Part shown: positions 15,401-34,007 of the stretch, one piece after another | Layout: each line of letters begins with the position of its first letter | How positions within the stretch are numbered: the first letter of the stretch is position 1 | DNA from: Candidatus Latescibacterota bacterium | GTDB taxonomy: Bacteria > Latescibacterota > UBA2968 > UBA8231 | Direction of reading: 5' to 3' | DNA: 64,000 bases | NCBI GenBank assembly: GCA_965215195.1 | Contig: CBDCDC010000001.1 | Location: 896,001 to 960,000 of the forward strand | Translations under genes and position numbers: made by a program | Notes under the pieces: generated by a model | Databases searched by the model: none | Told to the model about the DNA's origin: nothing | Seen by the model: only the letters and a program-made list of their open reading frames with translations

Positions 15401-17820
15401 ACAACTGCTCAACCGGGGTGATTTTCACGGTCAGCAGTGGTGGGGGTGGCAGCACACGTCCCGACTTGGTGGTTGAATCGCCTTCGGTCAGCGACAACAC
15501 GCTGACGGCCGGACAATCCTTCACCCTGAGGGCCACCGTCCGCAATCGGGGTAATGCTCGGTCCGCCTCAACGACCTTGCTCTACTACTACCGCTCGGAC
15601 GATTCGTCGATAGTCGGCACGGATACTGTGAGCGGCCTTTCGGCTTCGGCGACGAGTGCGGAATCAATCAGTCTGATAGCCCCGTCACGTGCGGGCACGT
15701 ATTACTACGGCGCGTGTGTGGAAAGCGTCCCCGACGAAAGCGATACCAATAACAACTGCTCAACCGAGGTGCTCGTTACGGTCAGCAGCGATGGCGGCGG
15801 CAGTAGTCGTCCCGACTTGGTGGTTGAATCGCCTTCGGTCAGCGACAACACGCTGGCGGCCGGACAATCCTTCACCCTGAGTGCCACCGTCCACAATCGG
15901 GGTAATGGTCGGTCCGCCTCGACGACCTTGCGCTATTACCGCTCGTCCAATTCGTCGATCTCCACGAACGACAGGCAGGTCGGCACGGATACTGTGAGCG
16001 GCCTTTCGGCTTCGGCGACGAGTGCGGAATCAATCAGTCTGATAGCCCCGTCACGTGCGGGCACGTATTACTACGGCGCGTGCGTCGAAAGCGTCCCCGA
16101 CGAAAGCGATACCAATAACAACTGCTCAACCGAGGTGCGCGTCATGGTGGGCAGCGGTGGCGGTGGCAACGATGATCATAGCAATACCCGATCGGGCGCG
16201 ACCAACCTTCCTTTGGATGACTCACGCTCAGGGCGGATCGAAACCGGCGGGGATATCGATTACTTCCAAGTGCAAGTCAGCAGCTCTGGTACCTTGACCG
16301 TTTACACCACAGGCCGCACCGATACTTGGGGTACCCTGCAAAACAGTTCCGGTTCCGATCTGGCAAACGATGACGATGGAGGAGATGGTAACAATTTCCG
16401 CATCGAACGTACCGTGACTCCGGGCACCTACTACCTCCGAGTACGAGGGTATGACTCGTCAAAGACTGGAAGCTATACCGTTCACGCACGTTTTCAGAGG
16501 AGAGATGAGATCGGTGGCGGTGGCAACGATGATCACAGCGATACCCGATCGGGCGCGACCTTCCTTCCTTTGGGTGGGTCAGTCTTAGGGCGGATCGACA
16601 CCGGCGGGGATGTCGATTACTTCAGGGTGCAAGTCAGCAGCTCTGGGATCTTGACAGTTTACACCACAGGCGACACCGATACTTATGGGACCCTGCAAAA
16701 CAGTTCCGGTTCCGATTTGGCAAGCGATGACGATGGAGGAAGTGATAACAATTTCAGCATAGCACGTTCCGTGAGTGCGGGCACCTACTACATCCGAGTA
16801 CGAGGGTATGACTCGTCAGCGACTGGAAGCTATACCGTTCGCGCAAGTTTTCAGAGCGATGATACAGACTTCAATATCGAACTTGTCTTCCTCAATTCCG
16901 TCCTCACTTCATCTCAGTCGAACTCTGTGAAACAGATCGTCCAACAGGCGGCTACGCGCTGGGAGTCAGTCATTACAGGAGATCTTCCGGAGGTTGACCA
17001 CTCATCTAACCCGTGTGATATAGATATGAGAATAATAACAAGAAAATATACCAACCCCCCTATTCGCGTCGACGATGTCGTGGACGACCTGCGGATATTT
17101 GTTCATGTCGATAGCATTGACGGGTCAAGAAGAACTTTAGCACAGGCAACCCCGCTAGAGCTAAGGGATTCCCTCCTGCTGCCAGCTATCGCAGTGATAA
17201 TACTCGATGAAAGGGATATATCTAGTTCTAGTTCGTCGTATTTTCTGCAACGAATTGTTCTCCACGAGATGGCGCACGCTTTAGGGTTTACCGCCGATGT
17301 TTGGAATGAGAAAAATTTGATGCAGGGCCATGTATGGGATACGCTTTTCGGGCTCTTGCTAAAAGAAGATAGGGACGTGCGTTTCATTGGTCGGCGGGCA
17401 ATTGGGGCGTTCAACAACGCGGGAGGCCGGGATGATAAAGTGCCCGTGGAGAATTATACAACTGACGGGAAACGGAAGCCGGATTGGGGCACAGAATATT
17501 CTCATTGGAGGGAGTCCGTGTTCAGAGAAGGGAACAAGAGCGAGCTTATGGTCGGGAGAGTGGATACATCTTATGAATTTCCACTGAGCGCGATCACGAT
17601 CCAGTCCTTTGCCGATCTTGGCTACCAAGTTGACGCAAGTCAGGCCGACCCGTACACCATTCCCTCACCACCAGCAAGTAAGCCCGTTGCGGGCCATAGC
17701 TTGGAACTCAACTGTAGCTTGGACGTGAGGAGTATTCCTGTGGTTGATGAGAACGGACGCATCGTCCGCACCATCACACCATTTGCTTGGCGTTTGCCAT
17801 TAGGTCGGCGCGTGGATTAA
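9454..17820 (+). CDS. Giant secreted protein (~2788 aa): export/dockerin module, 3 six-bladed YWTD (LDL-receptor class B) propellers, 8 CARDB-like domains, 3 PPC-like domains, C-terminal leishmanolysin-like (M8) Zn-metallopeptidase
   Basis: Start MKFLYVCLMG parallels the 4907 gene; 18x KMYWTD...IQRANLDG; 8x PDLVVE..S; 3x DDHS.TRSGAT...GDVDYF; VLHEMAHALGF...SHW...ELM. Confidence 0.9.
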   Translation: MKFLYVCLMGLMLSAQANTAQPSTVAGQVQRADGRPVAGAQVTLFDLADLHQGAVARAMTNAAGHFALSLQSFSAGTALPDGFALGQNYPNPFNPSTIIPYQIPASAHVRLEVFNMLGQRLATLVDAERPAGAHTAQWDGTDAAGRAVGAGVYIYRLSSGEVSVSRRMVLVDGQAGMPAAGGAPGPVRAVEGLVEADGPVYGLTVSGEGLVPYVDPAFQVEAGRAWVEVVLAAPARAKRLPGEDRLLGDVDGKGRVDIVDALLVAASVGPTGLTTGGDLDGVDNGARLGLIDLGDVNGDGVVNLVDAYLIGVYSVNPSDPVLPAGIGKRVSFASDGTPNKMYWTDQNTNKIQRANLDGTNVEDLITNGLVHPDGIALDVGRGKMYWTDATTTDSDTRRIQRANLDGTNVEDLITNGLGHPVGLALDVGQGKMYWTDLGTDKIQRANLDGTNVEDLITHGLDLPKGLALDVGRGKMYWTDPSRRRIQRANLDGTNVEDLITNRLSQIKGLALDVGRGKMYWTDPSRRRIQRANLDGTNVEDLITNGLVHPDGIALDVGRGKMYWTDATTGKIQRANLDGTNVEDLITNGLNRPAGLALAALAGSDVSGENGGSSRPDLVVESPSVSDNPLTTGQSFTLSATVRNRGNGQSASTTLRYYRSDDSTISTTDGQVGTDTVSGLSASATSAESINLTAPSSAGTYYYGACVESVSDESDTNNNCSTGVLVMVGSPDPIVELPNKMYWADSGTNKIQRANLDGTNVEDLITGLRLRGLALDVGRGKMYWTASSADKIQQANLDGTNVEDLITHGLSHPVGLALDVGRGKMYWINWGTRKIQRANLDGTNVEDLITGLDAPEGLALDVGRGKMYWADAGTGSIQRANLDGTNVEDLITNGLDAPIGLALDVGRGKMYWTDAGTDKIQRANLDGSNVEDLITHGLSNRNPVGLALDVGRGKMYWTDWVTHKIQRANLDGTNVEDLITHGLSHPVGLALVALADSDVSGGDGGSSRPDLVVESPSVSDNPLTTGQSFTLSATVRNRGNGQSASTTLRYYRSDDSTISTTDGQVGTDTVSGLSASATSAESINLTAPSSAGTYYYGACVESVSDESDTNNNCSTGVLVTVGSPDPIVELPNKIYWTDQDTGKIQRANLDGSNVEDLITGLVVPDGIALDGGRGKMYWTQWGMDTGKIQRANLDGSNVEDLITGLERPSGIALDVGRGKMYWTDAGTDKIQRANLDGSNVEDLITSGISPTRIALDVERGKMYWTQWGAPGKIQRANLDGSNVEDLITSAGELKGRGIALDGVNGKIYWSETPSLKVSSSRIRRANLDGSNVEDLITNGLEYPIAIALDVGRGKMYWADVLKSKIQRANLDGSNVEDRITHGFYYPLAIALVALADSAVSGGGSRPGPDLVVEKPSFSDDRLRTGQSFTLSATVRNLGNGRSASTTLRYYRSDDSTISPNDRHVGTGNVSGLSASATSAESINLTAPSSVGEYYYGACVESVTDESDTNNNCSIGVRVTVRSRPDLVVENPSVRDNSLTTGQSFTLSATVRNRGNVRSASTTLRYYRSDDSTISPNDRQVGTDTVRGLSASATASESIYLTAPSRAGTYYYGACVESVADESDTSNNCSTGVRVTVDSGGGGSSRPDLVVESPSVSDNTLTAGQSFTLRATVRNRGNGRSASTTLRYYRSSNSSISTNDRQVGTDNVRGLSASATASESIRLTAPSRAGTYYYGACVESVTDESDTNNNCSTGVRVTVRSGGGGDLDDHSDTRSGATDLSLGDARSGRIETGGDVDYFRVQVSSSGILTVYTTGDTDTYGTLQNSSGSDLEDDDEAGLSNNFRIERSVSEGTYYIRVRGYDSSTTGSYTVRTRFRNGGGGSSRPDLVVESPSVSDNTLTAGQSFTLRATVRNRGNARSASTTLLYYYRSDDSTLSRPVGTDNVSGLSASATSAESIRLNAPSNAGTYYYGACVESVADESDTSNNCSTGVIFTVSSGGGGSTRPDLVVESPSVSDNTLTAGQSFTLRATVRNRGNARSASTTLLYYYRSDDSSIVGTDTVSGLSASATSAESISLIAPSRAGTYYYGACVESVPDESDTNNNCSTEVLVTVSSDGGGSSRPDLVVESPSVSDNTLAAGQSFTLSATVHNRGNGRSASTTLRYYRSSNSSISTNDRQVGTDTVSGLSASATSAESISLIAPSRAGTYYYGACVESVPDESDTNNNCSTEVRVMVGSGGGGNDDHSNTRSGATNLPLDDSRSGRIETGGDIDYFQVQVSSSGTLTVYTTGRTDTWGTLQNSSGSDLANDDDGGDGNNFRIERTVTPGTYYLRVRGYDSSKTGSYTVHARFQRRDEIGGGGNDDHSDTRSGATFLPLGGSVLGRIDTGGDVDYFRVQVSSSGILTVYTTGDTDTYGTLQNSSGSDLASDDDGGSDNNFSIARSVSAGTYYIRVRGYDSSATGSYTVRASFQSDDTDFNIELVFLNSVLTSSQSNSVKQIVQQAATRWESVITGDLPEVDHSSNPCDIDMRIITRKYTNPPIRVDDVVDDLRIFVHVDSIDGSRRTLAQATPLELRDSLLLPAIAVIILDERDISSSSSSYFLQRIVLHEMAHALGFTADVWNEKNLMQGHVWDTLFGLLLKEDRDVRFIGRRAIGAFNNAGGRDDKVPVENYTTDGKRKPDWGTEYSHWRESVFREGNKSELMVGRVDTSYEFPLSAITIQSFADLGYQVDASQADPYTIPSPPASKPVAGHSLELNCSLDVRSIPVVDENGRIVRTITPFAWRLPLGRRVD

Positions 17821-20041: not shown

Positions 20042-21454
20042 GTGCCGCAAAACGTCAGCGAAGAACGCGTGCGCAAAATAGTCGAAGAAGTGGTGCAGCG
20101 AATCGTCAGCGGCGAGGGAGACCGCGAGGGCGGGGACACCGGCGTTTTCGCCGCGATCGATGCGGCCGTCCAAGGCGCGACCCGCGCCCAGCAGCAGTTG
20201 GTGGCCTTGTCGCTGGAGGAGCGCAAAAAGATCGTCGAGGCCCTCCGGCAGACGGCGCACGCCCACGCCGAGGAATTTTCGCGGCGGGCCTTGGCCGAGA
20301 CGGGCATGGGGCGGCTAGAAGACAAGATCATCAAGCACCAAGTCGCGGCCGACACAACGCCCGGCGTCGAAGACCTAGAGGCCGTTTCGTGGACCGGCGA
20401 CCACGGGCTGACCGTAGTCGAAATGGCCCCCTACGGGGTCATCGGCGCGGTCACTCCATCGACGCATCCCGTGCCGACGATGGTCAACAACGCCATTTGC
20501 ATTGTCGCCGCGGGCAACTCGGTCGTCTTTAACGTCCATCCGGCGGGCCGCAAGGTCTCCATGTTCGCGGTGGGGTTGATCAATCAAGCCATCGTCGCGG
20601 CCGGCGGGCCGGCCAACCTGGTGACCGCGGTCGAAACGCCGACCATTGAGACGGCCAACGAATTGTTCAACCACCCGGACGTCCGCTTGCTGCTGGTCAC
20701 CGGCGGGCCGGGCGTGGCCAAGGCCGCGCTGGGCAGCCCCAAAAAGGCCATTGTCGCCGGGCCGGGCAATCCGCCCGTGGTCGTCGATGAAACGGCCGAT
20801 CTGGCCAAGGCCGCGCACGACATCATCGACGGGGGGGGCTTCGACAACAACATCCTTTGCATCGGCGAGAAGCAGGTCTTTGCGGTCGCGGCGATTGCCG
20901 ACGAGCTCAAGCGGCTGATGGTCCAGTACAATGCATACGAGCTCGACGTGCGGCAGGTTGAGGCCCTCGCGCAGGTGGCCTTTGTCAAAGGACCGGACGG
21001 GCATGTCGCGGTCAACCGCGAGCTGGTGGGGCGCGACGCGGCCGTGCTGGGCGAGCGCATTGGCCTGCGGCTCGACTCGTCCCTGCGCATGCTCATTGGC
21101 GAGACCGACGCCAACCACGTTTTTGTGCGCGAGGAGCAGATGATGCCCTTTCTGCCAATCGTGCGGGTGCCCAATATCGACCAAGGCATTCGCGAGGCCG
21201 TCATCTCCGAGCACGGCTACGGGCACACGGCCGTGATCCATTCGCGCAACATCGAAAACATGCACAACATGGCCCGCGCGGTGGATACCACCATTTTCGT
21301 CAAGAACGGTCCTTCCTACGCCGGAGTTGGCTTGGGCGGCGAGGGCTTTGGGACGTACTCCATTGCCGGGCCTACGGGCGAGGGCCTGACGTCGCCGCGC
21401 ACTTTTACCCGCCAGCGCCGCTGCGCCCTCGTCGATTACTTCCGCATCACCTGA
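20042..21454 (+). CDS. BMC acylating aldehyde dehydrogenase (EutE/PduP-like) with N-terminal encapsulation peptide
   Basis: FDNNILCIGEK, EQMMPFLP, TGEGLTSPRTFTRQRRC; N-terminal amphipathic SEERVRKIVEEVVQRI. Confidence 0.9.
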   Translation: MPQNVSEERVRKIVEEVVQRIVSGEGDREGGDTGVFAAIDAAVQGATRAQQQLVALSLEERKKIVEALRQTAHAHAEEFSRRALAETGMGRLEDKIIKHQVAADTTPGVEDLEAVSWTGDHGLTVVEMAPYGVIGAVTPSTHPVPTMVNNAICIVAAGNSVVFNVHPAGRKVSMFAVGLINQAIVAAGGPANLVTAVETPTIETANELFNHPDVRLLLVTGGPGVAKAALGSPKKAIVAGPGNPPVVVDETADLAKAAHDIIDGGGFDNNILCIGEKQVFAVAAIADELKRLMVQYNAYELDVRQVEALAQVAFVKGPDGHVAVNRELVGRDAAVLGERIGLRLDSSLRMLIGETDANHVFVREEQMMPFLPIVRVPNIDQGIREAVISEHGYGHTAVIHSRNIENMHNMARAVDTTIFVKNGPSYAGVGLGGEGFGTYSIAGPTGEGLTSPRTFTRQRRCALVDYFRIT

Positions 21455-21768
21455 TGCTCTTGGGCCAAGTCAAAGGGCACTTGGTCGCCACGGCCAAGGT
21501 CCCGAGCCTCAACGGCAAGAAGCTCTTAGTCGTCGAAATCGCGTCGGTGCGCGAGCATGGTCTGGTGCTGACTGGGCGAGATATGGTGTGCATCGACGCA
21601 GTGCAAGCGGGCAAGGGCGAGTTGGTGATTTTGGTGCAGGGCAGCTCGTCGCGGATCGCCCCGAACTTGGCCGACGTGCCAGCCGACGCAGTAATCGTCG
21701 GGATCGTGGATTCGCTACAGGCCATGGGCAAGGACTTCGACTGCCGGCAACTGAGCCGCGGAGAATAG
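21454..21768 (+). CDS. BMC vertex pentamer (EutN/CcmL family)
   Basis: MLLGQVKGHLVATAK...DAVQAGKGELVILVQGSSSR...DAVIVGIVD. Confidence 0.9.
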   Translation: MLLGQVKGHLVATAKVPSLNGKKLLVVEIASVREHGLVLTGRDMVCIDAVQAGKGELVILVQGSSSRIAPNLADVPADAVIVGIVDSLQAMGKDFDCRQLSRGE

Positions 21769-21771
21769 GCG

Positions 21772-22443
21772 ATGGAAGCGGCTGGATTGGATCGCAAGCA
21801 GATTGAGGCACTGGTGCGCCAAGCGGTGTACGGTCACCTGCCCGACGCTCAGCTAGAGCAGGCACCCCCAGCCCCGAGGCTGGTCGTCAATATGTCCGCC
21901 CGCCACGTCCACCTCAATCAAAAGGCGCTGGACGCGCTCTTCGGCGCGAGTGCCGAGCTGACCGTGCAGAAGGCCCTGTACCAAGAGGGTGCTTTCGCCG
22001 CCGAGCAGACGGTGTCGGTTTTCGGCCCGCGCAAGCAGGTGATTCCCAAGGTGCGAATCCTCGGCCCATTGCGCGATTACAACCAAGTGGAACTGGCCTT
22101 TACGGACGCCCGCTTTTTGGGCATTGACGCGCCCGTGCGGCTCAGTGGCAACATCGAGGGGACGCCGGGCTGCTACTTGGTGGGGCCGGCCGGGGGGCTG
22201 GAGCTCGAGCGCGGAGTGATCCGGGCCGCCCGCCACGTACATCTGAATCCGGCTGAAGCCGCGTACTACGGGGTCGGCCCGGGGGACTTGCTGCGACTCA
22301 TAGTAGAAGGCGATCAGGGCGGGGTGCTAAAAGGGCTGATCTGCCGCGTCAGCGAGCGCGAGCGCCTCGAAGTTCACATCGACACGGACGAGGGCAATGC
22401 GATTGATTTGGTACATGCCCGCAAGGTATATTTGGAGCGTTGA
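21772..22443 (+). CDS. pduL: PduL-type phosphotransacylase
   Basis: SARHVHL, VRILGPLR, RLSGNIEGTPG, VIRAARHVHL, HIDTDEGNA; N-terminal encapsulation-like helix. Confidence 0.9.
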   Translation: MEAAGLDRKQIEALVRQAVYGHLPDAQLEQAPPAPRLVVNMSARHVHLNQKALDALFGASAELTVQKALYQEGAFAAEQTVSVFGPRKQVIPKVRILGPLRDYNQVELAFTDARFLGIDAPVRLSGNIEGTPGCYLVGPAGGLELERGVIRAARHVHLNPAEAAYYGVGPGDLLRLIVEGDQGGVLKGLICRVSERERLEVHIDTDEGNAIDLVHARKVYLER

Positions 22444-22480: not shown

Positions 22481-23041
22481 ATGTCGGATGCAGTAGGTAT
22501 GGTAGAAACCGTGGGGCTGGTCGGGGTCGTCGAGGCCGGCGACGCCATGGCCAAGGCCGCCAGCGTACAGCTTTTGGGCTGGGACCGGGTCGGCTCCGGT
22601 TTGGTGACCGTGTTTTGCTCGGGCGATGTGGCGGCCGTCAAGTCGGCCGTGGATGCCGGCTCAACCGCTGCGGCCAAGGTTGGGGAGGTGCATTCGGTGC
22701 ATGTGATTCCCCGCCCGCACAGCGAGTTGACGGCCGTCGTGCCCGAGCGCAGCGACCGCAGCGACAGCGATGGTCGCGTCCGCGCCTTGGGCCTCATTGA
22801 GACGAAGGGGGCCATCGGCGTGATCGAAGCGGCCGACGCCATGAGCAAGGCCGCCGATGTGGAGATCGTCAAGCTCCAAGAAATCGGCGGCGGGTACATC
22901 ACCGCCATGGTCAGCGGCGACGTCGGCTCAGTGCAGGCTTCGGTCAGCGCTGGTGCCGAGGCGGCCGAGCGCGTGGGCGAGCTCGTGTCGCAGCACGTGA
23001 TTCCCCGCCCCCACGACGATCTCGTCGCTCTGTACTTGTAG
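22481..23041 (+). CDS. BMC shell protein with two tandem canonical BMC domains
   Basis: Two G(M/L)(V/I)ET.G...ADAM.KAA...GDV...HVIPRPH units. Confidence 0.9.
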   Translation: MSDAVGMVETVGLVGVVEAGDAMAKAASVQLLGWDRVGSGLVTVFCSGDVAAVKSAVDAGSTAAAKVGEVHSVHVIPRPHSELTAVVPERSDRSDSDGRVRALGLIETKGAIGVIEAADAMSKAADVEIVKLQEIGGGYITAMVSGDVGSVQASVSAGAEAAERVGELVSQHVIPRPHDDLVALYL

Positions 23042-23056: not shown

Positions 23057-23320
23057 ATGAAAGCATTGGGCATGGTCGAGACCCGCGGTTTGGTCTGCGT
23101 CGTCGAAGCCCTCGACGCCATGTTGAAAACCGCCGACGTGAGCTATGCGGGCCAAAAGCGCGTGGGCAGCGGCCTAATCGCCGTGCTGGTCGAAGGCGAC
23201 GTAGCAGCCGTTAAAGCGGCCGTAGATGCAGGGGCGCAAGCCGCCCAGCGCATCGGCGAGCTGCGCAGCGTCCACGTGATTCCCCGCCCGACTGAGGGGC
23301 TGATAGACCACCTTGGTTAG
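23057..23320 (+). CDS. BMC-H hexamer shell protein
   Basis: ALGMVETRG...DAMLKTADV...GDVAAVKAAV...HVIPRP. Confidence 0.92.
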   Translation: MKALGMVETRGLVCVVEALDAMLKTADVSYAGQKRVGSGLIAVLVEGDVAAVKAAVDAGAQAAQRIGELRSVHVIPRPTEGLIDHLG

Positions 23321-23324
23321 CTAG

Positions 23325-23774
23325 GTGACCAAGGCTTTGCACATCGACGCCCCGGTCGTCACCGGCGACTTGCTCGGGCGCGAGCACAAGGGCGAGCGGG
23401 CACTCCGCGTGGCCCCCAGTGCCATCTTGACGCCGACGGCTTGGGATTACATCCGCCAGCACCGCTTGCAGCTAAATCGCGGCGAGCCTGTTGCGGCAGC
23501 CGTTGACGGCGTTGCGGCCGCGGGCCGGTGCGAGCATCCCGACCGCGCCTGCGGCTGCCAGCACGAGGAATTTGGCTCGGGGTACGTCGAGCCGGCGCAC
23601 TGCGGCGATTGCGCCGTCCACCAGCGCAAGAAGGAAGGCGACCCCGAGGCGAGTTGCGCAGGCTGCAACCGCTATAAGACGCTTTTGCAACAAATCGAGC
23701 AGGGCCAAGCCACCGACCCGGAAGCCCTAGTTGAGCAGATCACCGAGCTAGTAATTCACCGGCTGGCAGACTGA
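23325..23774 (+). CDS. Cys-rich BMC-associated hypothetical protein with C-terminal encapsulation-like peptide
   Basis: N-terminal VVT..L...AILTPTAWDYIR motif; 7 Cys including two CxxC; C-terminal DPEALVEQITELVIHRL. Confidence 0.7.
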   Translation: MTKALHIDAPVVTGDLLGREHKGERALRVAPSAILTPTAWDYIRQHRLQLNRGEPVAAAVDGVAAAGRCEHPDRACGCQHEEFGSGYVEPAHCGDCAVHQRKKEGDPEASCAGCNRYKTLLQQIEQGQATDPEALVEQITELVIHRLAD

Positions 23775-23777
23775 GCT

Positions 23778-24362
23778 ATGGCGGGGGCCCCGGCAGTCGG
23801 CATGATCGAGGTGGAGGGCGTAGCCGCCGCCATTGTGGGTGCGGATGCGGCTTGCAAGGCCGCAGACGTGGAGCTTGCGGGTTGGGCGTCAATCGGCGGT
23901 TATACCACGGCCTTTTTCACCGGGTCAATCAGCGATGTGGCCGCTGCGCTGCAAAGCGGCCAAGAAGCGGCCCGCAGGGTGATAGAACACGTGGTGGCCG
24001 TGCCCCTACACCAACCCGCTCCCGCCTGCCTCCATTTCGTCGATTTTCCGGCCCGTGCCCACAGCGACTTGCCCGCCGGTGCCTTGGGGTTGGTCGAGAC
24101 GCGCGGCTACGGGGATCACATTTACACCAACGATCAGATGGTCAAGACGGCTGCCGTTGAGGTAATCAACGTGCTGACGGTCCACGACCGCGTGGTGTGT
24201 TCGCTGGTCTTGGGGGACGTAGGGGCCGTCACCGAAGCCATAGCTGTCGCGCAAAAGTTGCTCGCAGGCTGCGAGCGCTTGCTGGGCACGGCACTGATCC
24301 CCCAGCCGCGGCCAGAGATTTTGGCCGCATACGCCGTGCCGCTGGGAGGTGGCGGTGTCTAG
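23778..24362 (+). CDS. Divergent two-domain BMC shell protein
   Basis: AVGMIEVEG..ADAACKAADV and ALGLVETRG..DQMVKTAAV..GDVGAV..IPQP. Confidence 0.85.
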   Translation: MAGAPAVGMIEVEGVAAAIVGADAACKAADVELAGWASIGGYTTAFFTGSISDVAAALQSGQEAARRVIEHVVAVPLHQPAPACLHFVDFPARAHSDLPAGALGLVETRGYGDHIYTNDQMVKTAAVEVINVLTVHDRVVCSLVLGDVGAVTEAIAVAQKLLAGCERLLGTALIPQPRPEILAAYAVPLGGGGV

Positions 24363-25503
24363 CGGGGCGCTCGGCATGCTGGAGACGCGCGGCATGGCGT
24401 CGCTGATGGCTTCCACCGACGCCATGCTCAAGGCCGCCCAAGTGCAACTCTGCGGTCGGCACGGCATTGGCGCGGGTTGGCTCACCGCAGTAATTGCCGG
24501 CCAAGTGGCTGATGTAGAGGCGGCCATTGGCGTTGGCGAGGTTGAGGCGAACCGCACCGGCGAACTGATTGGCGCACGAGTAGTGCCGCGGCCGGACGCA
24601 CGCGCCATGGACGCCATGCCCCACGCAACCGGGCTCGGTGCCGAACAGGTACAGCCGCGGGCGATAGGCTTGTTGGAAACGCAGGGGCTGACGCCGCTAG
24701 TGGCCGGTGCGGATGCCATGCTCAAGGCCGCCCAAGTGGAGCTAGGGGGTTGGGCTTTCATCGGCGGTGCCCTGTGCCACGCGCCGATCTTTGGCGATGT
24801 GGCGGCCGTGCAGACAGCGCTAGAAGCCGGCCGGCGAGCAGCCGAGCGGATCGGCACCGTGTATGCGACCCTCGTTTTGCCCCAGCCCAGCGAGGGGCTA
24901 GGCCCTCTGTTGCCGCCTGCGCCGGCGGCCGCGCCGCGCTCCACGGGTGCCTTGGGCCTCGTAGAGACCATTGGCTACGCCGCGGTCGTGGGCAGTGCCG
25001 ACGCCATGCTCAAGGCCGCGGATGTCCAAATTGAGCGCTTGAGCATCGGCAGCGGCGGGCGGATTGCCGCGCTGGGCATCGGCCAACTCGACGACGTGCA
25101 GGCCGCGGTGCGCGCCGGTGCCGAGGCCGCCACGGCCTTGGGCCAGCTCGACGCCTCGGCCGTAGTCTCGCGGCCCGATCCCATGCTAGTCGCCCGCTTT
25201 GCCACCGCGGCCGAGGGCCTTGGGCCGGGTGCGCGGCAGGCCATAGGGCTGATTGAGACGCGCAGCACCGTGGCCTTGGTGCGGGCTGTCGATCGGATGC
25301 TCAAGGCCGCGGCCGTCGAATACGAAGGGGCCTATAAGGTGGGGTACTACTTGACGGCCGCTGTCGTGCGCGGCGATGTCGGTGCCGTGCAGGTCGCCAT
25401 AGAGGCGGGTCGGCAGGAGGCTGTCGCACACGGGGAACTGGTCTCGGCCTACGCCATTCCCCAGCTCTACGGCGGGCTCGAAGGCCGCCTGCCGCACGTT
25501 TAG
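24349..25503 (+). CDS. BMC shell protein with four tandem BMC domains
   Basis: Four A(L/I)G(M/L)xET...D(A/R)MLKAA units in 384 aa; start overlaps the previous gene by 14 nt. Confidence 0.88.
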   Translation: MAVSSGALGMLETRGMASLMASTDAMLKAAQVQLCGRHGIGAGWLTAVIAGQVADVEAAIGVGEVEANRTGELIGARVVPRPDARAMDAMPHATGLGAEQVQPRAIGLLETQGLTPLVAGADAMLKAAQVELGGWAFIGGALCHAPIFGDVAAVQTALEAGRRAAERIGTVYATLVLPQPSEGLGPLLPPAPAAAPRSTGALGLVETIGYAAVVGSADAMLKAADVQIERLSIGSGGRIAALGIGQLDDVQAAVRAGAEAATALGQLDASAVVSRPDPMLVARFATAAEGLGPGARQAIGLIETRSTVALVRAVDRMLKAAAVEYEGAYKVGYYLTAAVVRGDVGAVQVAIEAGRQEAVAHGELVSAYAIPQLYGGLEGRLPHV

Positions 25504-25517
25504 GGAGGACGCGAAAA

Positions 25518-26687
25518 ATGATTCGGATTGACGATGCAGTAATTACCGCTCAGACCTTGGAGGGCCGCCTAGCTGGCGAACGGCAGGTTGAGCTCGGCCC
25601 GGGGGCCAAGCTGACGCCCTCGGCGCAGGATTTTTTGCGCGTCCAAGGCGTTGAGGTCGTGCGCCGGGAAGCCGATGGCCAAGCCCCCCCAACGCCAGTG
25701 CCAGCACCAGCGGTTCCTCGCGCCGAAGGTCGCAAGGCATTTGCTGGCATCTTCTGTCCCAATGTCGTCCTTTTCGACAGCCGCAACGAGATCAACCACG
25801 CCGAGATGGAGCGCTACGTCAACTGGCTGATCGAGGTCGGGATCCACGGGCTGTACCCCAACGGCAGCACGGGCGAGTTCGCGCGCCTGTCGCGGGAGGA
25901 GCGCCAAGACGTGGTGCGGCTGGTCTGCGAGGTCAACGCGGGGCGCGTACCCATACTGGCCGGTGCCAGCGAGGCCAACTTGCGCGACGTGCTCGAGATG
26001 GCCGAATACTACGCCTCGCTCGGGGTGGATGCCATTGCCCTGATGCCCCCCTATTACTACGAGATTTCCACCGAGAGCCTCTTCGAGTACTTCGCCGAAA
26101 TCGCCGGAGAATCGCCGCTGGACATCCTGCTGTACAATATCCCGCAATTTACCCAAGAGCTGTCGATAGATTTGATGGAGCGGCTCTTGCCCTACGAGCG
26201 GATCTTCGGCACCAAGGACTCCAGCCGCGACTTGCCGCGACTGCTCAACACCATGCACCGCCTGCGCCAACAACGCCCCGACTACGTGGTGATGACCGGC
26301 TGCGAGGAGATGGCGTTCCCCGCGGTGCTTATGGGTGCCAGTGGGGGCACCATTGCCACCTCGGGCATTGTCCCGGAAGTCATCGTCGAGCTCTACGAAA
26401 AGGCCAAAAGCGGCGACATTGAGCGCGCCCGCGAACTACAGTACCGCATCCTCGACCTAATCAATCTCATGCTCCTCGGGGTCAACTTTCCAGAGGGCTT
26501 CAAGACCGGCGTGGCAGCCCGCGGCTTTGACGTAGGCCCAGCGCGTGCGTTGAGCAGCGCGGCCGAGCAGGAGTATCTGCTCAAGCTAGAGGCGCAAATC
26601 AACTGCGTCCTCGCGGATATGGGCTATCCGGTAAACGGCCCCCGCGCCTGCCCGGCGACCAACCTGCCGCCGATCGTCGGTCGCTAG
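25518..26687 (+). CDS. DHDPS/NAL-family class I aldolase or lyase with an N-terminal BMC-associated extension
   Basis: GLYPNGSTGEF, LLYNIP, GTKDSS (Schiff-base Lys); N-terminal VITAQTL...GAKLTPSAQDFLR. Confidence 0.85.
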   Translation: MIRIDDAVITAQTLEGRLAGERQVELGPGAKLTPSAQDFLRVQGVEVVRREADGQAPPTPVPAPAVPRAEGRKAFAGIFCPNVVLFDSRNEINHAEMERYVNWLIEVGIHGLYPNGSTGEFARLSREERQDVVRLVCEVNAGRVPILAGASEANLRDVLEMAEYYASLGVDAIALMPPYYYEISTESLFEYFAEIAGESPLDILLYNIPQFTQELSIDLMERLLPYERIFGTKDSSRDLPRLLNTMHRLRQQRPDYVVMTGCEEMAFPAVLMGASGGTIATSGIVPEVIVELYEKAKSGDIERARELQYRILDLINLMLLGVNFPEGFKTGVAARGFDVGPARALSSAAEQEYLLKLEAQINCVLADMGYPVNGPRACPATNLPPIVGR

Positions 26688-27764
26688 ATGGCCTTGGCGG
26701 GCACTCGCGCGTTGGTGGTCGGGGCCGGTATCATCGGCCGCTCGACCGCCTATTTCCTCGCCCGGCAAGGCGCGAAGGTCATCCTGCTCGACGAGGGCAG
26801 TGCCGCTGGCTCGCCCACGAGCCGGGCCTCTTTGGGCGTCCTCACCCACTGCAACGGCGGCGACAATCCCTACGCCCAGCTCTTCCGCGACGGCCACGCT
26901 CTGCACGCCCGGCTGGCTTGCGACCTAGCCGAAGAGCTGGGCGCAGACGTGGGCTGGCGTCCCCTCGGCGGCATTGAGCTTTTTGCCGACGCATCCCAGC
27001 TAGAGGAAGTATGGCGTTTCAATCGCGCGCGCGGCTGTCGGGTTGAGCGGCTTGACGAGCGGGCCTTGGGCAGTGCGGAGCCAGCATTGGACAGCGGCTG
27101 CGAGGGCCTGTTTTTTGCCGACGATCACCGGGTGGATCCCCTCAAGTTGGGCGCAGCACTTTGGGCGGCGGCGGCCCAGCGGGGTGCGGTGGCCGCTTGG
27201 GGCGAGCGCGTCTGGCGCATTGCCCAAGCGGGCGCGTCCGTCGAGGTCGCCACCAGCCGCGGAACCCACCGCGCCGACTTTGCGGTCTTGGCGGCTGGGG
27301 CGTGGACCAGCGGCTTGGCCGCCCAGCTCGGTGCCCGAGTCGCGCTGCGTCCGGTGCGGGGCCAACAAGCGCGTTTTGCCGGTGCCCCGCTGCGCCACCT
27401 AGTGAGGATAAACGGACGCCATCTCATTCCAGACGGCGGCGAAACGGTCGTGGGCTCAACGGTGGAGGAGGTCGGCTTTCGGCTGGAAACGACCCGCGCG
27501 GCCGCGGCCGAGTTCGCCGCGCAGGTGCGCTCCGCGCTGGGGAGGGGCTTGCCCCTGTCGCGCCAGCAAGCTGGTCTGCGGCCCAAGCCCCGAGGCGGGC
27601 GTCCGCTCATCGGCCCGCTAACAGATGCGCCGCGAGTCTTCGTGGCCTCCGGGCACTACAAAAACGGCGTCTTGCTAGGCCCGATTACCGGCCAAATCGT
27701 CGCCCGCTGGATCGCCGCGGGAACCCCGGGGCGCGACATGCGCCGCTTCGCGCCCGAGCGTTGA
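26688..27764 (+). CDS. FAD-dependent oxidoreductase, D-amino-acid/glycine oxidase (DAO/ThiO) family
   Basis: VVGAGIIG, AAGAW, PVRGQ, AGLRP, SGHYKNGVLLGP. Confidence 0.85.
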   Translation: MALAGTRALVVGAGIIGRSTAYFLARQGAKVILLDEGSAAGSPTSRASLGVLTHCNGGDNPYAQLFRDGHALHARLACDLAEELGADVGWRPLGGIELFADASQLEEVWRFNRARGCRVERLDERALGSAEPALDSGCEGLFFADDHRVDPLKLGAALWAAAAQRGAVAAWGERVWRIAQAGASVEVATSRGTHRADFAVLAAGAWTSGLAAQLGARVALRPVRGQQARFAGAPLRHLVRINGRHLIPDGGETVVGSTVEEVGFRLETTRAAAAEFAAQVRSALGRGLPLSRQQAGLRPKPRGGRPLIGPLTDAPRVFVASGHYKNGVLLGPITGQIVARWIAAGTPGRDMRRFAPER

Positions 27765-27797
27765 ATTCATTTCCACCTAACACCGTTGAGGTTAAAC

Positions 27798-28739
27798 ATG
27801 CCATTGCAAAAGGAAGCCCTGCTCGCCGCGCTAAACTCGGTCACCTCCATCCCGGTGGTCCCTTTTCGCGGGGGGCAAATCGACTACGAGGCCCACGCCA
27901 AAAACATCAACTACTTGATGGAGAACAACCACTTAGACGGCGACCGCCCCCGGGTGATTGGCATCGCCGGCACCAGCTTGGTCCACCACATTAGCGCGGA
28001 CGAGCAAGTGCGGCTGTTGGGCTTTACCGGCGAGCAGATGGGGGGGCGCGGGGTGCTGATGGCCGGGATTGCCCCCAATCCGGTTGGGGATGCCGAGCGG
28101 TTGATTGAGCGGGAGGCCGCGCTCGAATACCCCCCGGATGTCTATCTCGTCATGCCGCTTACGGGCGTGGCGAGTCCAGAGGGCATTTTCGCGTACTACG
28201 CGGATTTTGCCGAGCGGCTGGGGCGCTCGTGCGGGGCCAAGCTGCTCTACTATCTGCGCAACCAAGCCGAGCGCGACATAGCCGTGCGGCTGATGAACGA
28301 ATCCGAGCACTTCGTGGGGCTGAAGATCGGCACCACGGTCGAGGATGTCGAGCCGATTGTCGCGGGTGTGGAAGAGGGGGCCGCGCTGGTGATCTGGGGC
28401 GTGGGCGACCGTTCGACCGGGCCGGCCGAGCGCGGCACCAAAGGCCACACCTCGGGGATCAACGTGGCCTTTGCCCGCGCCTCAGACGAGATCAACAACG
28501 CCCAGCGCCGGGGCGATTTTGCGACCTCGCAGCAGATTGAAAACCAGCTCGCAGCCCTAGAGGAAATTCGCTTTCGCGACGGCCGCATGTACAACTATTC
28601 AGCCGTGGTTGAGGCCATGCACTTGGGGGGATTCAGCGATGTGGATGGCGGCGAGGGCGGCCCGTTCAATCCGCGGGTGCCAGCGGAAGTGGCCGCGGAA
28701 GTGGCCGCGGCCATAGCCGACATTGTGGACTATCACTAG
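27798..28739 (+). CDS. Second, divergent DHDPS-family protein (KDG-dehydratase-like)
   Basis: SIPVVPF..GQIDY, LLYYLR, VGLKIG, GHTSGI. Confidence 0.7.
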   Translation: MPLQKEALLAALNSVTSIPVVPFRGGQIDYEAHAKNINYLMENNHLDGDRPRVIGIAGTSLVHHISADEQVRLLGFTGEQMGGRGVLMAGIAPNPVGDAERLIEREAALEYPPDVYLVMPLTGVASPEGIFAYYADFAERLGRSCGAKLLYYLRNQAERDIAVRLMNESEHFVGLKIGTTVEDVEPIVAGVEEGAALVIWGVGDRSTGPAERGTKGHTSGINVAFARASDEINNAQRRGDFATSQQIENQLAALEEIRFRDGRMYNYSAVVEAMHLGGFSDVDGGEGGPFNPRVPAEVAAEVAAAIADIVDYH

Positions 28740-29908: not shown

Positions 29909-30322
29909 TTACGCTGCTTGGTATCCCAATCCCCACACACGCAGGAGGGCGCGACACCCCTGTTCAAAGGTTTGCGTAAAATCGATGATCTGAAAGGAAG
30001 GCAGTGTCCAAGAAAGTCGCTCATAGTCACAGGGTTGGTATAAAAGGGGGACAATTTCGTTTTCAAAGCGGTTCTGCTGAAGAGCAAACATCAGCTCTCT
30101 CTTTACCCAAGTAGATTCCACGGCACTTGGCGATAAGACAAGCACAAACCAATCGCAGCGGCGAAGTGCCTCCCCAATTTTATCATGCCACTGCTGTCCT
30201 CCAAGTACATTGGTTCGACTGTACCAGACGGGGAGTCCATGCCGCCGCATTACGGCAACCAACTCTTCTACGAACTGCCGATCGCAGTCAGAATGCGAGA
30301 GAAAAATTTCCGTTGGCAACAT
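29909..30322 (-). CDS. Stand-alone TIR domain protein
   Basis: IFLSHS..D, VLVLSPSAVESTWVKREL (catalytic-type Glu), IVPLLY. Confidence 0.88.
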   Translation of the reverse strand: MLPTEIFLSHSDCDRQFVEELVAVMRRHGLPVWYSRTNVLGGQQWHDKIGEALRRCDWFVLVLSPSAVESTWVKRELMFALQQNRFENEIVPLLYQPCDYERLSWTLPSFQIIDFTQTFEQGCRALLRVWGLGYQAA

Positions 30323-30360
30323 AACTCAAGGAATTGATACAGATGTAGAAGGCGAGGTCG

Positions 30361-30768
30361 TTAAGCGGCCTCTAGAAGTGCCTGTGCAATCTGACTAATT
30401 CCTTCTTCCTCGGCGTATTCACCCATATCGATCATATGTAAGCGCCGAAGAATCCATGGAATATCTTCTTTTTTTAACTCCCCTCGATCACTTACAAGGA
30501 CAGGAATCAGACGTTTGCGATAGTTTTGTTCGCCGAGAGCATACTCGATCTCCCGACGTACCCAACTCGAACGTAGAGCGTCAGCGGTCAGGAGGACCAC
30601 CATGGCTTTTGACTCTTTCAACGCCCGCGCTACTTCTTCGGTCCAATTAGCCCCAGGCAGGACGTCACGGGTGGCATCCCATACTTCGAGCCCGGCTCCC
30701 TCTAAGCCAGCCGCAACCTTTTTGACAAGCGGATCATCTGTGTAGGCATGGCTGATAAAAACTTTCAT
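30361..30768 (-). CDS. Stand-alone TIR domain protein
   Basis: MKVFISHA, VVLLTADALRSSWVRREI, LIPVLV. Confidence 0.88.
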   Translation of the reverse strand: MKVFISHAYTDDPLVKKVAAGLEGAGLEVWDATRDVLPGANWTEEVARALKESKAMVVLLTADALRSSWVRREIEYALGEQNYRKRLIPVLVSDRGELKKEDIPWILRRLHMIDMGEYAEEEGISQIAQALLEAA

Positions 30769-30867
30769 AATCCAACTATCCTTTCGTGTCTGCTGCTAAC
30801 GATAAATCTTTAGAAATGGGTACTGAAGCAAAAGTTTCATGCGCTTTCTGCCCGCTAGAGCACTCTA

Positions 30868-31362
30868 CTATCCCTTGAAGTAAAATATACCAGCCAATAA
30901 GATATACAACAGGCCAAAGTATCTCGGCACCCACTTCTCTACGCCCGTAAGCGGCCGGTATAGCTTTCTATTCTTTCCTTCGCCGAGTGCTTTCCATTCA
31001 GCATCGTAAGGAGCAACAGGTAGCATTTGCTCAAGCGCGAGGACGACCTTGTACTTACCCCTGTTTAGCTGCCGGTACGAATTTACTACGCGCTCCCATA
31101 CGTAACAGAGAAGCATCAAGGCGAAAAAAGGCGCAAAGATGATCCAAGCTGGTTTCAGCATGTCCTCTTTGAGCAGCACAGTAAAGGCGATAGTCAGAGT
31201 CGTATGCACACCGACGAAAAACGAGTTTGCGAGCATCCTCCGCGCACTGACTCGATCAGCCATTTTGACGTATAGCTTGTACTGGTCAAAAAGGTGATTC
31301 TCAAATTCAGTGCCGTAAGCATCTTTACTCTGTCTCAGCAAATTTAGGTTGTTTTTGCTCAC
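30868..31362 (-). CDS. Small multi-pass membrane protein (RipA/8xMP-like putative pore effector)
   Basis: DQYKLYVKMADRVSARRMLANSFF, about 3 hydrophobic segments, SYRQLNRGKY..LEQMLP..YDAEW; family name from recall. Confidence 0.65.
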   Translation of the reverse strand: MSKNNLNLLRQSKDAYGTEFENHLFDQYKLYVKMADRVSARRMLANSFFVGVHTTLTIAFTVLLKEDMLKPAWIIFAPFFALMLLCYVWERVVNSYRQLNRGKYKVVLALEQMLPVAPYDAEWKALGEGKNRKLYRPLTGVEKWVPRYFGLLYILLAGIFYFKG

Positions 31363-31422
31363 CTCTTTCCTCCTCGACTTATGACGTAGCAAGAAGCTAT
31401 CGTAGATTTTTCAACGTTTTAT

Positions 31423-31839
31423 TTATAAAGACCATTTCCGAATAGCATCTACGATGCTACTTGTCTGCCAACCAACCATTTCCTTTGCAACATTTTGCAC
31501 TTCAGTCGGTACACGTTCTTGACCCCAAGGAATAACTCCGATAATCGGCTTATTATAGGCTACGGCGATGTTAATTTCTTTCTGAATCCACTTTCTATGA
31601 TTCACGTACATGCCAGAAACCACAAGAAAACAGTTTATCGGGGCAATTTGCAGGTTAAGTGCTTGAAGCAATTCCCCATCTGTCTTTGTCCCCAGCGGGT
31701 CGTGCTCTGGAACTGAGTAATTGCGCCAATAGAAGTACGGTGCTTCGTAGAGCAAATTTTCAAGGCGGTAGTACTCGGAATTATCGACACTGCGCCATAC
31801 ATGGCTTAGAAACAGATCATACATTTTAAGTCTTGGCAT
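31423..31839 (-). CDS. ThsB/MTH538-like TIR domain protein (DUF1863)
   Basis: YDLFLSHVW, NYSVP..DP, WIQKEI, KPIIGVIPWG, VGWQTSSIV. Confidence 0.85.
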   Translation of the reverse strand: MPRLKMYDLFLSHVWRSVDNSEYYRLENLLYEAPYFYWRNYSVPEHDPLGTKTDGELLQALNLQIAPINCFLVVSGMYVNHRKWIQKEINIAVAYNKPIIGVIPWGQERVPTEVQNVAKEMVGWQTSSIVDAIRKWSL

Positions 31840-31937
31840 GTCCGCCCCCTTCTTTGTTTAGTTGAAAATAATGACTAGGACCGGATCAAGCACCTCCGGC
31901 GCTCGCCGACGGAAAACACCAGATTTGCCTACGTCTG

Positions 31938-32243
31938 TCAGACAGGTTCATAGCGCCGGACCCTGATCTCGTTTGCACGGGAGCGCATCTGCGAGGCATC
32001 GTACCAAGCCTGCATCCGCAGCAGCATGTCCATACCCACGCCGAATGCCTTCTCGATGCGCAGCGCCATCTCCGGCGATAGCGCAGCGTTGCCGTTCAAC
32101 AAGTCCGAAAGCGTTGCCCGCCGAACCCCCAGAATCTCGGCCGCCCTTGTCACGTTCAGACCCAGCTCCTCAATGATCTCCGTGCGAATGAAGTCCCCCG
32201 GATGTGAAGGGGTCATGTTCACTTTGATGCCGTCGGTAGCCAT
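31938..32243 (-). CDS. higA: HigA-family antitoxin (orphan)
   Basis: HPGDFIRTEI..LGLNVTRAAEILGVRRATLSDLLNG..LSPEMALRIEKAFG. Confidence 0.88.
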   Translation of the reverse strand: MATDGIKVNMTPSHPGDFIRTEIIEELGLNVTRAAEILGVRRATLSDLLNGNAALSPEMALRIEKAFGVGMDMLLRMQAWYDASQMRSRANEIRVRRYEPV

Positions 32244-32251
32244 TGATCGAC

Positions 32252-33841
32252 TCAGCAGTGCTTGCTGATAAATTCGCGGCTCATCCACTGCCCGAGCACG
32301 TTCTGCGAACGGAGCAGCATCTTTTGGTAAGCGCGTTCTAAGTTCTTTTTATTTTTGGCGTTGGGCAGGGCGTTGTAACGGCCGCGGATTTGGGTGATGG
32401 CGCGGCTGCGCGGATCGACGGCGATGGTGAGGATGCGGTGGCGGTGGCCTTTGCCGTCTTGTACGCCGAGGGACCAGATTGAGGTACTGCCGTTGCGGCA
32501 GCTCTTGGCGTAGGTATAGACGCAGTGGCCCATTTCGCGGCCCTCGGCGCCCAGTTCGCGGTTGGAGAGCAACTCCTTTATGCTCCAAGTGAGGGTCTCG
32601 CCGAGTTGCTTGTCCGCCTGCTTCATCTCGAATTCGCCAATACTCGAAGCTCCCCAAGACATGGGCCGGACGCGGCCCTTTTTGCCACCAGCGCGGCCTC
32701 GCTCGGCCTCTGCATCGGGTAGCAGCACCTGCCGCGCCAGCGCTTCGTGCCACTCGTCAACTTGGCGCAACAGCTTGGGAATGCTGCGGCTGTTCATGGA
32801 AAAGTTCGGCCGCGCCGGCGGCCTCTGCTCGACGCGACCGCCGGGCAGGGCGATTTGCTGGGGCACGTATTTCTGCTCGTGAATAAAATCGACGATGGGG
32901 CCGACGTGGGCCGGGTCAAGCATGGGATTGTTGGCAAAAAACAGGATCGCGGTGGACCAGAAGTCCTCGTTTGCAAACGACTGGCCCAACCGGGTGGCAA
33001 TCACCGCCCGCGCCAACGCCGGACTGCCGCCTTGGCCCAGGACTTGGCCCCAGCGCAGGGCGTGAGCTATGGAGAGGTCGGCGGGGGCGGCGAGGAAGCA
33101 GTGGGCCGACTTCTTGCTCAAAGCGACCGGGAGGTCGGCCGTGCGGATGTTCTGCCCCGAGCCGATGTGTTTGAACCACGCCTGATGCAAACCCGCTTCT
33201 GGCATGGCTGCGGTGAAAAAGGCCGCGTCCATAAAAATGGGCACGTCGTAGCGGGCTAGCAGGTGGCCGGCGAGGTGGTGAAACTGCTTGCGGGGGTTGT
33301 GGCTTGGCGGCACCCACTCGGCCACCGGGCGCACCCAGTCTTCTGAGTGGCGAGCCAAGGCGGCCAAGCCGTCGATGAAGTTGTTGTGCGGGTGGGCAGC
33401 GAAAGCCGGGATGACCGGGTCGAGGCGAAACAGGTCGGCGCGGCGGGCGGCTTGGAGCAGAATATCGAGAAAGGCGCGGCGCGCCGGGCCGTAGGGAAAG
33501 GCGTTGAAGAGGCCGCGAATTTTGTAGAGGTAGTCGGCACCGAGCCGCCCCTTGGGGAGCGTACGGTCGTAGATCTGGCGAATGGTATTGGCTGGGCTGC
33601 GGGTTTGCTGGCGGGTGCGAGTGAGTGCGGCCTCGCCCTGTTGGCGGCGGGCGAGCTGGCGTTCCTTTTGGATTTGGCGATTGCTCTTGTGAAGTCCGTC
33701 GCCCAAACCGCGCTTGCGGCACCAGGCCCGGTACTCATCCTCAGATTGGAGGCCCAAGGCGCGGATGTGGCTTCTGAGGTTGGCGCGGTTGTGGGCTCGC
33801 TCGATCTCGCTGCGGACATTTCTTTTGCGGCGGCGCGCCAT
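32252..33841 (-). CDS. PcfJ-domain protein
   Basis: QVDEWH...ELGAEGREMGHCVYTY...IWSL...TIAV...QIRGRYN; alternative start at 33865. Confidence 0.75.
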   Translation of the reverse strand: MARRRKRNVRSEIERAHNRANLRSHIRALGLQSEDEYRAWCRKRGLGDGLHKSNRQIQKERQLARRQQGEAALTRTRQQTRSPANTIRQIYDRTLPKGRLGADYLYKIRGLFNAFPYGPARRAFLDILLQAARRADLFRLDPVIPAFAAHPHNNFIDGLAALARHSEDWVRPVAEWVPPSHNPRKQFHHLAGHLLARYDVPIFMDAAFFTAAMPEAGLHQAWFKHIGSGQNIRTADLPVALSKKSAHCFLAAPADLSIAHALRWGQVLGQGGSPALARAVIATRLGQSFANEDFWSTAILFFANNPMLDPAHVGPIVDFIHEQKYVPQQIALPGGRVEQRPPARPNFSMNSRSIPKLLRQVDEWHEALARQVLLPDAEAERGRAGGKKGRVRPMSWGASSIGEFEMKQADKQLGETLTWSIKELLSNRELGAEGREMGHCVYTYAKSCRNGSTSIWSLGVQDGKGHRHRILTIAVDPRSRAITQIRGRYNALPNAKNKKNLERAYQKMLLRSQNVLGQWMSREFISKHC

Positions 33842-34007
33842 AGCCAAGTCCCAGTTTGAGGGCACTCCTTAATGAGTCGCACCGCTAGTATAATGTCAAC
33901 AGTCAGCGCAGCCGATAGAGCAAGGCGGCCGCCGCTGCCGCGCCGCTTGCCCGCGCCGGCGGCGGCGGTTTAATTTGCTCTTATCAACAACCCAACGCGA
34001 CGCGCCC

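Follow-up and report, generated by a model that had tools for sequence, protein, structure and literature searches.

Domain content of the T2-Q gene pair

The window analysed here is a stretch of 64,000 nucleotides (nt) from Candidatus Latescibacterota bacterium (assembly GCA_965215195.1, contig CBDCDC010000001.1, positions 896,001 to 960,000 of the forward strand). It holds a tightly packed plus-strand operon, in which two adjacent genes, termed T2 and Q, encode proteins built of bacterial microcompartment (BMC) shell domains (Table 1). T2 carries two such domains and Q carries four, and the two proteins probably combine into one shell tile of six different domains.

A Pfam search assigned PF00936 to Q (24349-25500, 384 amino acids (aa)) with 247.8 bits (E 5.5e-75) in 4 stretches and to T2 (23778-24359, 194 aa) with 109.8 bits (E 6.4e-32) in 2 stretches. 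This agrees with the original prediction, made from the sequence alone, which had read four consecutive, mutually divergent BMC domains in 24349-25503 and had proposed a count of the PF00936 domains by hidden Markov model (HMM). The model of Q calculated with AlphaFold2 (AF2) likewise displays four folded domains. In a scan of the whole genome, all six domains of T2 and Q lie above the PF00936 gathering cut-off of 24.5 bits. Here, ten PF00936 domains were found genome-wide, nine of them within the operon, and six of these nine belong to T2 and Q. The tenth (G000:C2:4346515-4346742, 86.9 bits, in a 155-aa open frame) lies on another contig, distant from the operon, and represents a satellite BMC-H-like gene. 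Among themselves the six domains of T2 and Q share 21-47% pairwise identity. The domains of Q are canonical and non-permuted, with profile positions 1-75 matched in order and the secondary structure order E-H-E-E-H-E repeated four times in the AF2 model.

Two start codons come into question for Q. The Shine-Dalgarno-like motif GGAGG overlaps the first of them, GTG 24349, and ends 5 nt 5' of the second, GTG 24355; furthermore, database gene calls for relatives of Q are mostly 382 aa long. Due to this spacing and these calls, GTG 24355 is the more probable start, and Q would overlap the end of T2, including its stop codon TAG 24360-24362, by 8 nt. The overlap with a two-domain BMC gene that had been described for Q is therefore retained, its length being more probably 8 nt than the 14 nt given before. 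With either start, the two cistrons overlap in different frames.

BMC-P (PF03319) and the cargo enzymes PduL and AldDH are co-encoded in the T2-Q operon. With the exception of AldDH, the enzyme family matches within the operon stay under the NCBIfam cut-offs. The cargo set, consisting of AldDH, PduL, the DHDPS/NAL aldolase-like enzyme, the DAO oxidoreductase and DHDPS2, resembles no characterised metabolosome that we could name. Speculatively, it might serve a 4-hydroxy-2-oxoacid or hydroxyproline-type route, in which an amine oxidation is followed by a DHDPS-family step releasing an aldehyde. Just 5' of the operon lies a single open reading frame (ORF) of 2809 aa on the plus strand (9391-17820). 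The guanine-plus-cytosine content is 0.475 at 30001-32000, compared with about 0.6-0.67 nearby, and genes for an 8xMP-family membrane protein (30868-31392) and a PcfJ-like protein (32252-33865), both on the minus strand, are found near this stretch. The region 30001-33865 may be a foreign insert that bounds the operon.

Table 1. Genes, domains and signals of the T2-Q operon, in window coordinates
Feature	Position	Strand	Description
AldDH	20042-21454	+	Acylating aldehyde dehydrogenase; NF011927, 649.6 bits
BMC-P	21454-21768	+	PF03319
PduL	21772-22443	+	Phosphotransacylase (PTAC); PF06130
T1	22481-23041	+	Ordinary BMC-T, two domains, 186 aa
H	23057-23320	+	BMC-H, 87 aa
U149	23325-23774	+	149 aa; no family match (Pfam, NCBIfam); directly 5' of T2 in the main-locus form
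T2	23778-24362	+	194 aa; two PF00936 domains; proposed partner of Q
T2a	23793-23996	+	PF00936 domain; pore loop one residue shorter; invariant pore-loop residues G35, W36, S38, G40, G41, T43
T2b	24081-24308	+	PF00936 domain, very divergent; invariant pore-loop residues L133, R138, V139, V140, C141
GGAGG	24345-24349	+	Shine-Dalgarno-like; inside the 3' end of T2; 5 nt before GTG 24355
Q	24355-25503	+	382 aa (384 aa if from GTG 24349); four PF00936 domains
Q1	24367-24594	+	PF00936 scan; invariant pore-loop residues G36, G41, W44, T46
Q2	24661-24888	+	PF00936 scan; invariant pore-loop residues G134, W135, G139, L142, H144
Q3	24949-25176	+	PF00936 scan; invariant pore-loop residues G236, G237, R238
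Q4	25240-25464	+	PF00936 scan; invariant pore-loop residues G327, G332, T336
DHDPS1	25518-26687	+	DHDPS/NAL-family class I aldolase-like enzyme; N-terminal extension of ~70 aa
DAO	26688-27764	+	DAO-family FAD oxidoreductase; cargo candidate
DHDPS2	27786-28739	+	Second, divergent DHDPS-family protein; cargo candidate

Linkage of T2 and Q across genomes

Among 8000 scored candidates, 1302 relatives of Q were obtained with E <= 0.001. They are named 'BMC domain-containing protein', CcmO, EutM or similar, and their organisms are labelled as Latescibacterota or Gemmatimonadota metagenome-assembled genomes. The best 120 of these 1302 are 285-404 aa long and 53-94% identical to Q, no homologue among them being longer than 404 aa; among 150 listed representatives, one exceeds 414 aa (P0157, 569 aa, with 2 Pfam stretches). 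The Q family is narrow: only two full-length clusters were obtained from 1.84 billion library representatives (50% identity), the other strong matches being fragments. As far as seen, the T2-Q family does not extend beyond a single phylum, which has been little studied and whose bacteria are mostly uncultured. Outside this phylum, no ORF with at least three BMC domains was found in loci L013-L079, which contain single-domain runs or CcmO-like two-domain genes.

Within the phylum, Q was detected (E <= 1e-40) in 83 of 168 genomes, the genome of the window included, and in 17 of 49 genera. At the family level it is present in 64/75 genomes of f1, 16/22 of f3 and 2/31 of f4. Orthologues of T2 (E <= 1.5e-46) were detected in 84 of the 168 genomes, namely in all 83 genomes with Q and in G096. 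In the latter, an assembly that is 85% complete and split into ~980 contigs, the match covers residues 5-160 of T2 in a 163-aa open frame and probably represents a contig end. Co-occurrence had been proposed as a check of the pairing, and no genome was found that carries Q without its partner.

The gene order was analysed with an HMM built from the nine domains of the window, which was used to scan all ORFs of the fetched loci. A four-domain ORF is present in 61 loci, taken from L001-L012 and L080-L129, which represent 50 distinct genome handles plus the named records L001-L011, the latter possibly overlapping with the 50. Here, L080 is the window itself, and L012 was excluded, since a contig end cuts the locus and leaves only part of Q. 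A two-domain ORF lies immediately 5' of Q on the same strand in all 61 loci. Counted from the nearest start codon before the first domain of Q, the gap between the two genes is -8 nt in 41 loci, -1 nt in seven, -4 nt in three, +5 nt and +8 nt in three each, and +3, +12, +14 and +175 nt (L127) in one each. The relative frame differs between lineages; therefore T2 and Q are two coupled cistrons and not a frameshifted or recoded single gene. An assembly artefact or a frameshifted six-domain gene is ruled out as well, as the split is kept in 61/61 loci with varied junctions and frames, including many single-contig genomes. Both the adjacency in related genomes and the question of an artefact, which had been raised together with the original prediction, are thereby answered by conservation across the loci. 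The same ORF and HMM pass revealed no six-domain fusion among the fetched loci, the maximum being four domains per ORF, and the long open frames at Q matches (up to 791 aa) are out-of-frame upstream extensions.

A synteny table based on tblastn covers 23 loci (L001, L005, L007 and L110-L129). The full order AldDH, BMC-P, PduL, T1, H, U149, T2, Q, DHDPS1 (DAO, DHDPS2) is found in 15 of these, and in 8 (L111, L112, L117-L121 and L126, from families f3 and f4) T2-Q-DHDPS1 stand alone within about 11 kb. DHDPS1 lies directly 3' of Q in 21 of the 23 loci, including all 8 satellites, and DAO takes this place in L122 and L125. The T2-Q-DHDPS1 module has moved as a unit. In L005, a locus of the window's own genus, an insertion of ~4.3 kb separates U149 from T2, and T2 and Q are still joined.

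The four complete genomes of f3 contain 8 PF00936 domains each, belonging to T2, Q and two single-domain genes, and no ordinary BMC-T. The main shell locus of f3 consists of these two single-domain BMC genes adjoining three BMC-P genes. In G052, G053, G054 and G056 (f3; loci L111, L112 and L119-L121) the T2-Q-DHDPS1 satellite is located > 1 Mb from the main shell locus. In two loci of the window's own genus (L088 and L094) no BMC-H was found within the ~0.9 kb upstream flank.

Six domain positions and their predicted ring

For each protein 26 orthologues were aligned, down to 46-47% identity. The edge lysine of the motif D-x-x-x-K is invariant in all six domains (T2 K27 and K123; Q K28, K126, K222 and K319; 26 sequences each). 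In PduA and other BMC-H proteins, this lysine is involved in tile-tile contacts. Furthermore, each domain has a set of invariant pore-loop residues of its own (Table 1), and residues P91, H92, P180, P189, P276 and F284 are invariant in the linkers of Q. The interdomain linkers are all 20-22 aa long, and the C-terminal tail of T2 (17 aa) and the N-terminus of Q (6 aa) together amount to about one linker length.

In a FastTree phylogeny of 137 domains each of the six positions forms its own clade, on branches far exceeding those of T1 and H in length. In distant loci, T2 is 48-63% and Q 47-67% identical to the window, compared with 64-87% for T1 and 75-88% for H; T2 and Q diverge at similar rates, and T1 and H diverge less. 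These alignments indicate six non-equivalent positions under selection, and an asymmetric pore would follow from the six different invariant pore loops. An origin by triplication of a BMC-T was also considered for the six domains. The tree displays no odd/even grouping, and as its deep nodes rest on ~76 columns and are unreliable, no conclusion is drawn from it.

The Q monomer was modelled by AF2 from a 26-row alignment as four canonical BMC folds, with a mean predicted local distance difference test (pLDDT) score of 90.5 and a predicted template modelling (pTM) score of 0.89. In a Foldseek comparison, adjacent Q domains superpose on chains of 6NER, a synthetic tandem fusion of BMC-H, with TM scores of 0.87-0.89 (target-normalised), a root-mean-square deviation (rmsd) of 2.4-3.3 A and 38-45% identity. 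Natural BMC-T chains (PduT, 3NWG and HO-5812) fit one Q domain only, with an rmsd of 15-17 A over ~180 columns, which may reflect a differing direction of chain connectivity around the modelled ring. A sequence search matched no solved structure with at least three BMC domains to Q, the 52 chains with E <= 1e-10 all being at most 213 residues long.

In three runs, ESMFold2 predicted the complex of T2 and Q with interaction prediction scores from aligned errors (ipSAE) of 0.84, 0.85 and 0.83, and none of 3 controls scored above 0.00. Of 80 solved complexes, 58 attain the ipSAE mark used here, as do 2 of 110 mismatched pairs; these counts are approximate, since the prediction was based on own alignments. 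The runs have at least 93% of their contacts in common, and the pLDDT of the partners is at least 89. On Q, the confident interface is limited to Q1 (8-95), Q4 (305-361) and, within the pore loop of Q2, G139. On T2, both domains as well as the C-terminal tail (188-193) take part, T2b pairing with Q1 and T2a with Q4. Most contact residues named in the prediction are invariant, and the effective sequence number is small. These contacts suggest that Q is a four-sixths arc closed by T2 to a ring of the order T2a-T2b-Q1-Q2-Q3-Q4. Hence, the structure prediction that had been proposed for the 2+4 complex yields ring-closing contacts, and the closure of the T2-Q ring is predicted in silico.

It is therefore proposed, with a probability of about 70%, that T2 and Q form an obligate 1:1 heterodimeric, fully asymmetric pseudohexamer. 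The 1:1 heterodimer had been the central idea of the original prediction, and it is supported by the observed domain content, the conservation, the co-inheritance in 83 of 83 genomes, the adjacency in 61 of 61 loci and the complex prediction, all of them computational. Mechanistically, the overlapping, translationally coupled cistrons would yield equimolar amounts of T2 and Q, which would assemble into a heterodimer of ~62 kDa, one hexagonal tile of six different domains whose cyclic order equals the gene order. Such a tile would insert into the facets of the metabolosome beside ordinary BMC-H and BMC-P, here also beside an ordinary BMC-T, as a minor and specialised component. It would have no rotational symmetry, so that its central pore or binding surface would occur only once and its six edges would all be non-equivalent. 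The pore would be lined by six different loops, including two invariant arginines (T2b R138 and Q3 R238), Q1 W44 and Q2 H144. DHDPS1 as the constant neighbour suggests that the tile might serve this enzyme, for which it would provide a selective conduit or a docking site. Both the location of the tile in the shell and a role of its pore or surface for the adjacently encoded aldolase-like enzyme are inferred.

Several points weigh against this proposal. Co-inheritance and adjacency reveal a functional linkage and not a physical 1:1 binding, and the aldolase gene is tied to Q almost as tightly as T2 is (21 of 23 loci). A fused six-domain form is absent from the material described above, and therefore Rosetta-stone evidence is missing, nor does the domain tree point to a clear origin, e.g., from a triplicated BMC-T. 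The complex prediction covers one pairing, Q with T2, and its controls were unrelated proteins rather than competing BMC proteins. The high scores may partly stem from the likeness to the abundant solved BMC hexamers and trimers, such that any six BMC domains might close. Additionally, the ring geometry was derived from predicted contact lists and not from coordinates, and the alignments used for prediction are shallow, with 26 rows each and many of these from one genus.

A rival reading is that the ring of Q is completed by another or a promiscuous partner, either two BMC-H or, in this genome, T1. T2 would then form its own conventional homotrimer, and the genes would be linked as minor shell components of the same organelle. 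BMC-H genes are indeed present in every examined Q-bearing genome, T2 has the architecture of an ordinary two-domain BMC-T, mixed hexamers of BMC-H paralogues are known from the carboxysomal CcmK3/K4, and the modelling controls were unrelated proteins rather than BMC-H or T1. However, the four complete f3 genomes keep T2-Q and have no ordinary BMC-T, which argues against T1 as the partner of Q, and T2 accompanies Q in all 83 genomes. Overlapping or abutting cistrons fit an equimolar synthesis of T2 and Q, and the domains of T2 are the most divergent BMC domains of the locus, with invariant residues of their own, which suits fixed, unique positions and not a C3 trimer. Another partner for Q is considered unlikely.

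Still less probable is a self-association of Q, in which three chains with twelve domains would form two rings, either side by side with a chain bridging the tiles or stacked as in BMC-T(dp), so that Q would act as a staple. The stacked form is the alternative that had been named in the original prediction. The arithmetic fits (3x4 = 2x6), and the Pro-rich linker between the second and third domain, with about 20 aa, could in principle span two tiles. On the other hand, all three linkers of Q are equal in length to the single-tile linkers of T2 and T1, the Q monomer is confidently predicted as one continuous arrangement (pTM 0.89), and non-native neighbour interfaces (Q4-Q1, Q2-Q1 and Q4-Q3) would be required. 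Furthermore, the domains are not circularly permuted, unlike those of the stacking BMC-T(dp) as described in the BMC catalogue (PMC8217296), and the strict linkage to T2 would be left unexplained. That the pair is no shell tile at all, e.g., a soluble scaffold or a regulator made of BMC domains, is hardly credible given the invariant edge lysine in all six domains, the position of the genes inside a complete metabolosome operon (BMC-P, BMC-H, AldDH and PduL) and the satellite copies in genomes with BMC-H and three BMC-P elsewhere.

For the 2+4 tile, a possible ligand is suggested by the neighbouring genes. The first ~50 aa of U149 are homologous to the N-terminal extension of DHDPS1 (23325-23500 and 25518-25670; 36% identity across 50 residues with a pairwise E of 5e-9), and a whole-genome search found this domain only in U149 and DHDPS1, which flank T2-Q. 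This shared domain may serve to bind the shell specifically at the T2-Q tile. Judged by eye, AldDH and PduL seem to have short helical peptides of the ordinary kind at their N-termini in its place. Seven cysteines in the spacings C-x6-C-x-C, C-x2-C and C-x2-C are present in the C-terminal half of U149 (23500-23774) and may constitute a metal or Fe-S site. An ESM Atlas match of U149 to EutQ fragments scored 0.78, under the tool's threshold of 0.9, and is regarded as a lead only.

It is conceivable, if rather doubtful, that the T2-Q tile is a docking port with one site per tile. Here, the ~50-aa domain of U149 or DHDPS1 would bind the unique luminal surface or pore, so that precisely one enzyme, or one metal/redox module, would be anchored at a conduit of its own. 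If this is true, it would be a hard-wired substrate channelling through a shell tile, beyond what a symmetric hexamer or trimer could specify.

Relation to known shell proteins

In the BMC catalogue of 2021, the hexagonal building blocks are of five kinds, namely BMC-H, BMC-H(p), BMC-T(s), BMC-T(sp) and BMC-T(dp), which consist of one- or two-domain chains and are all symmetric (PMC8217296). There, BMC-T(s) is a homotrimer with C3 symmetry whose chain has two domains, and BMC-T(dp) is a circularly permuted, stacking class (PMC8217296). T2 has the two domains per chain of BMC-T(s) and Q has four, and the circular permutation of BMC-T(dp) was found in neither of them by Pfam or in the AF2 model. 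By their sequences, T2 and Q clearly belong to the BMC-domain shell family, and Q falls outside the two-domain definition of BMC-T.

Full-text literature searches, with supplements (e.g., Supplementary Data 2 of PMC8217296) and subscription-only papers outside their scope, revealed no paper describing BMC proteins with at least three domains. Within that scope, this is in line with the earlier statement that no characterised natural example was known. If modelled correctly, T2-Q would be the first tile from nature that is obligately heteromeric and fully asymmetric. Each pore-lining loop and each edge would then be free to evolve independently, and a pore or docking site could be matched to a single asymmetric ligand or to one cargo molecule and be oriented in a defined way within the facet. 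In engineering, this would provide a ready-made scaffold with six individually addressable positions and a fixed stoichiometry. Within its phylum, T2-Q is tied to an uncharacterised metabolosome with a DHDPS-family aldolase.

Among the known systems, BMC-T(s) proteins such as PduT and HO BMC-T1 share with the pair several non-permuted PF00936 domains per chain, linkers of ~20 aa and a pseudohexagonal tile of six domains, and the architecture of T2 is identical to theirs. In contrast, Q has four domains and cannot close a ring alone, and the proposed tile would be a heterodimer without symmetry.

The synthetic BMC-H tandem fusion 6NER, part of a solved Haliangium ochraceum shell, is the best match of Q both in sequence (E 2.2e-36) and in structure, and links neighbouring ring positions head to tail. 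However, 6NER is engineered and forms a homotrimer of chains with two identical domains, whereas Q is natural, has four different domains and would depend on an obligate partner.

The CcmK3/CcmK4 heterohexamers of beta-carboxysomes are tiles made from more than one gene product and have a lower pore symmetry; their protomers have a single domain and the stoichiometry is variable. They resemble the proposed T2-Q tile as a multi-gene assembly. In the latter, covalent linkage would fix the 1:1 stoichiometry and the cyclic order of the six positions.

The fusion of domains in shell proteins thus went beyond two, and three-domain chains were found too. In seven of ten proteins scanned (P0131, P0135, P0136, P0138, P0143, P0155 and P0177; 286-330 aa) three PF00936 stretches each are present. 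Their genes lie on several contigs independent of one another, and among the source names are Dehalococcoidia and Candidatus Calescamantes. The proteins are 25-43% identical to Q, and the literature searches mentioned above found no description of them. Like Q, they are natural chains with more than two PF00936 domains. Unlike Q, they belong to other lineages, and a homodimer (2x3) could close the ring without a second gene.

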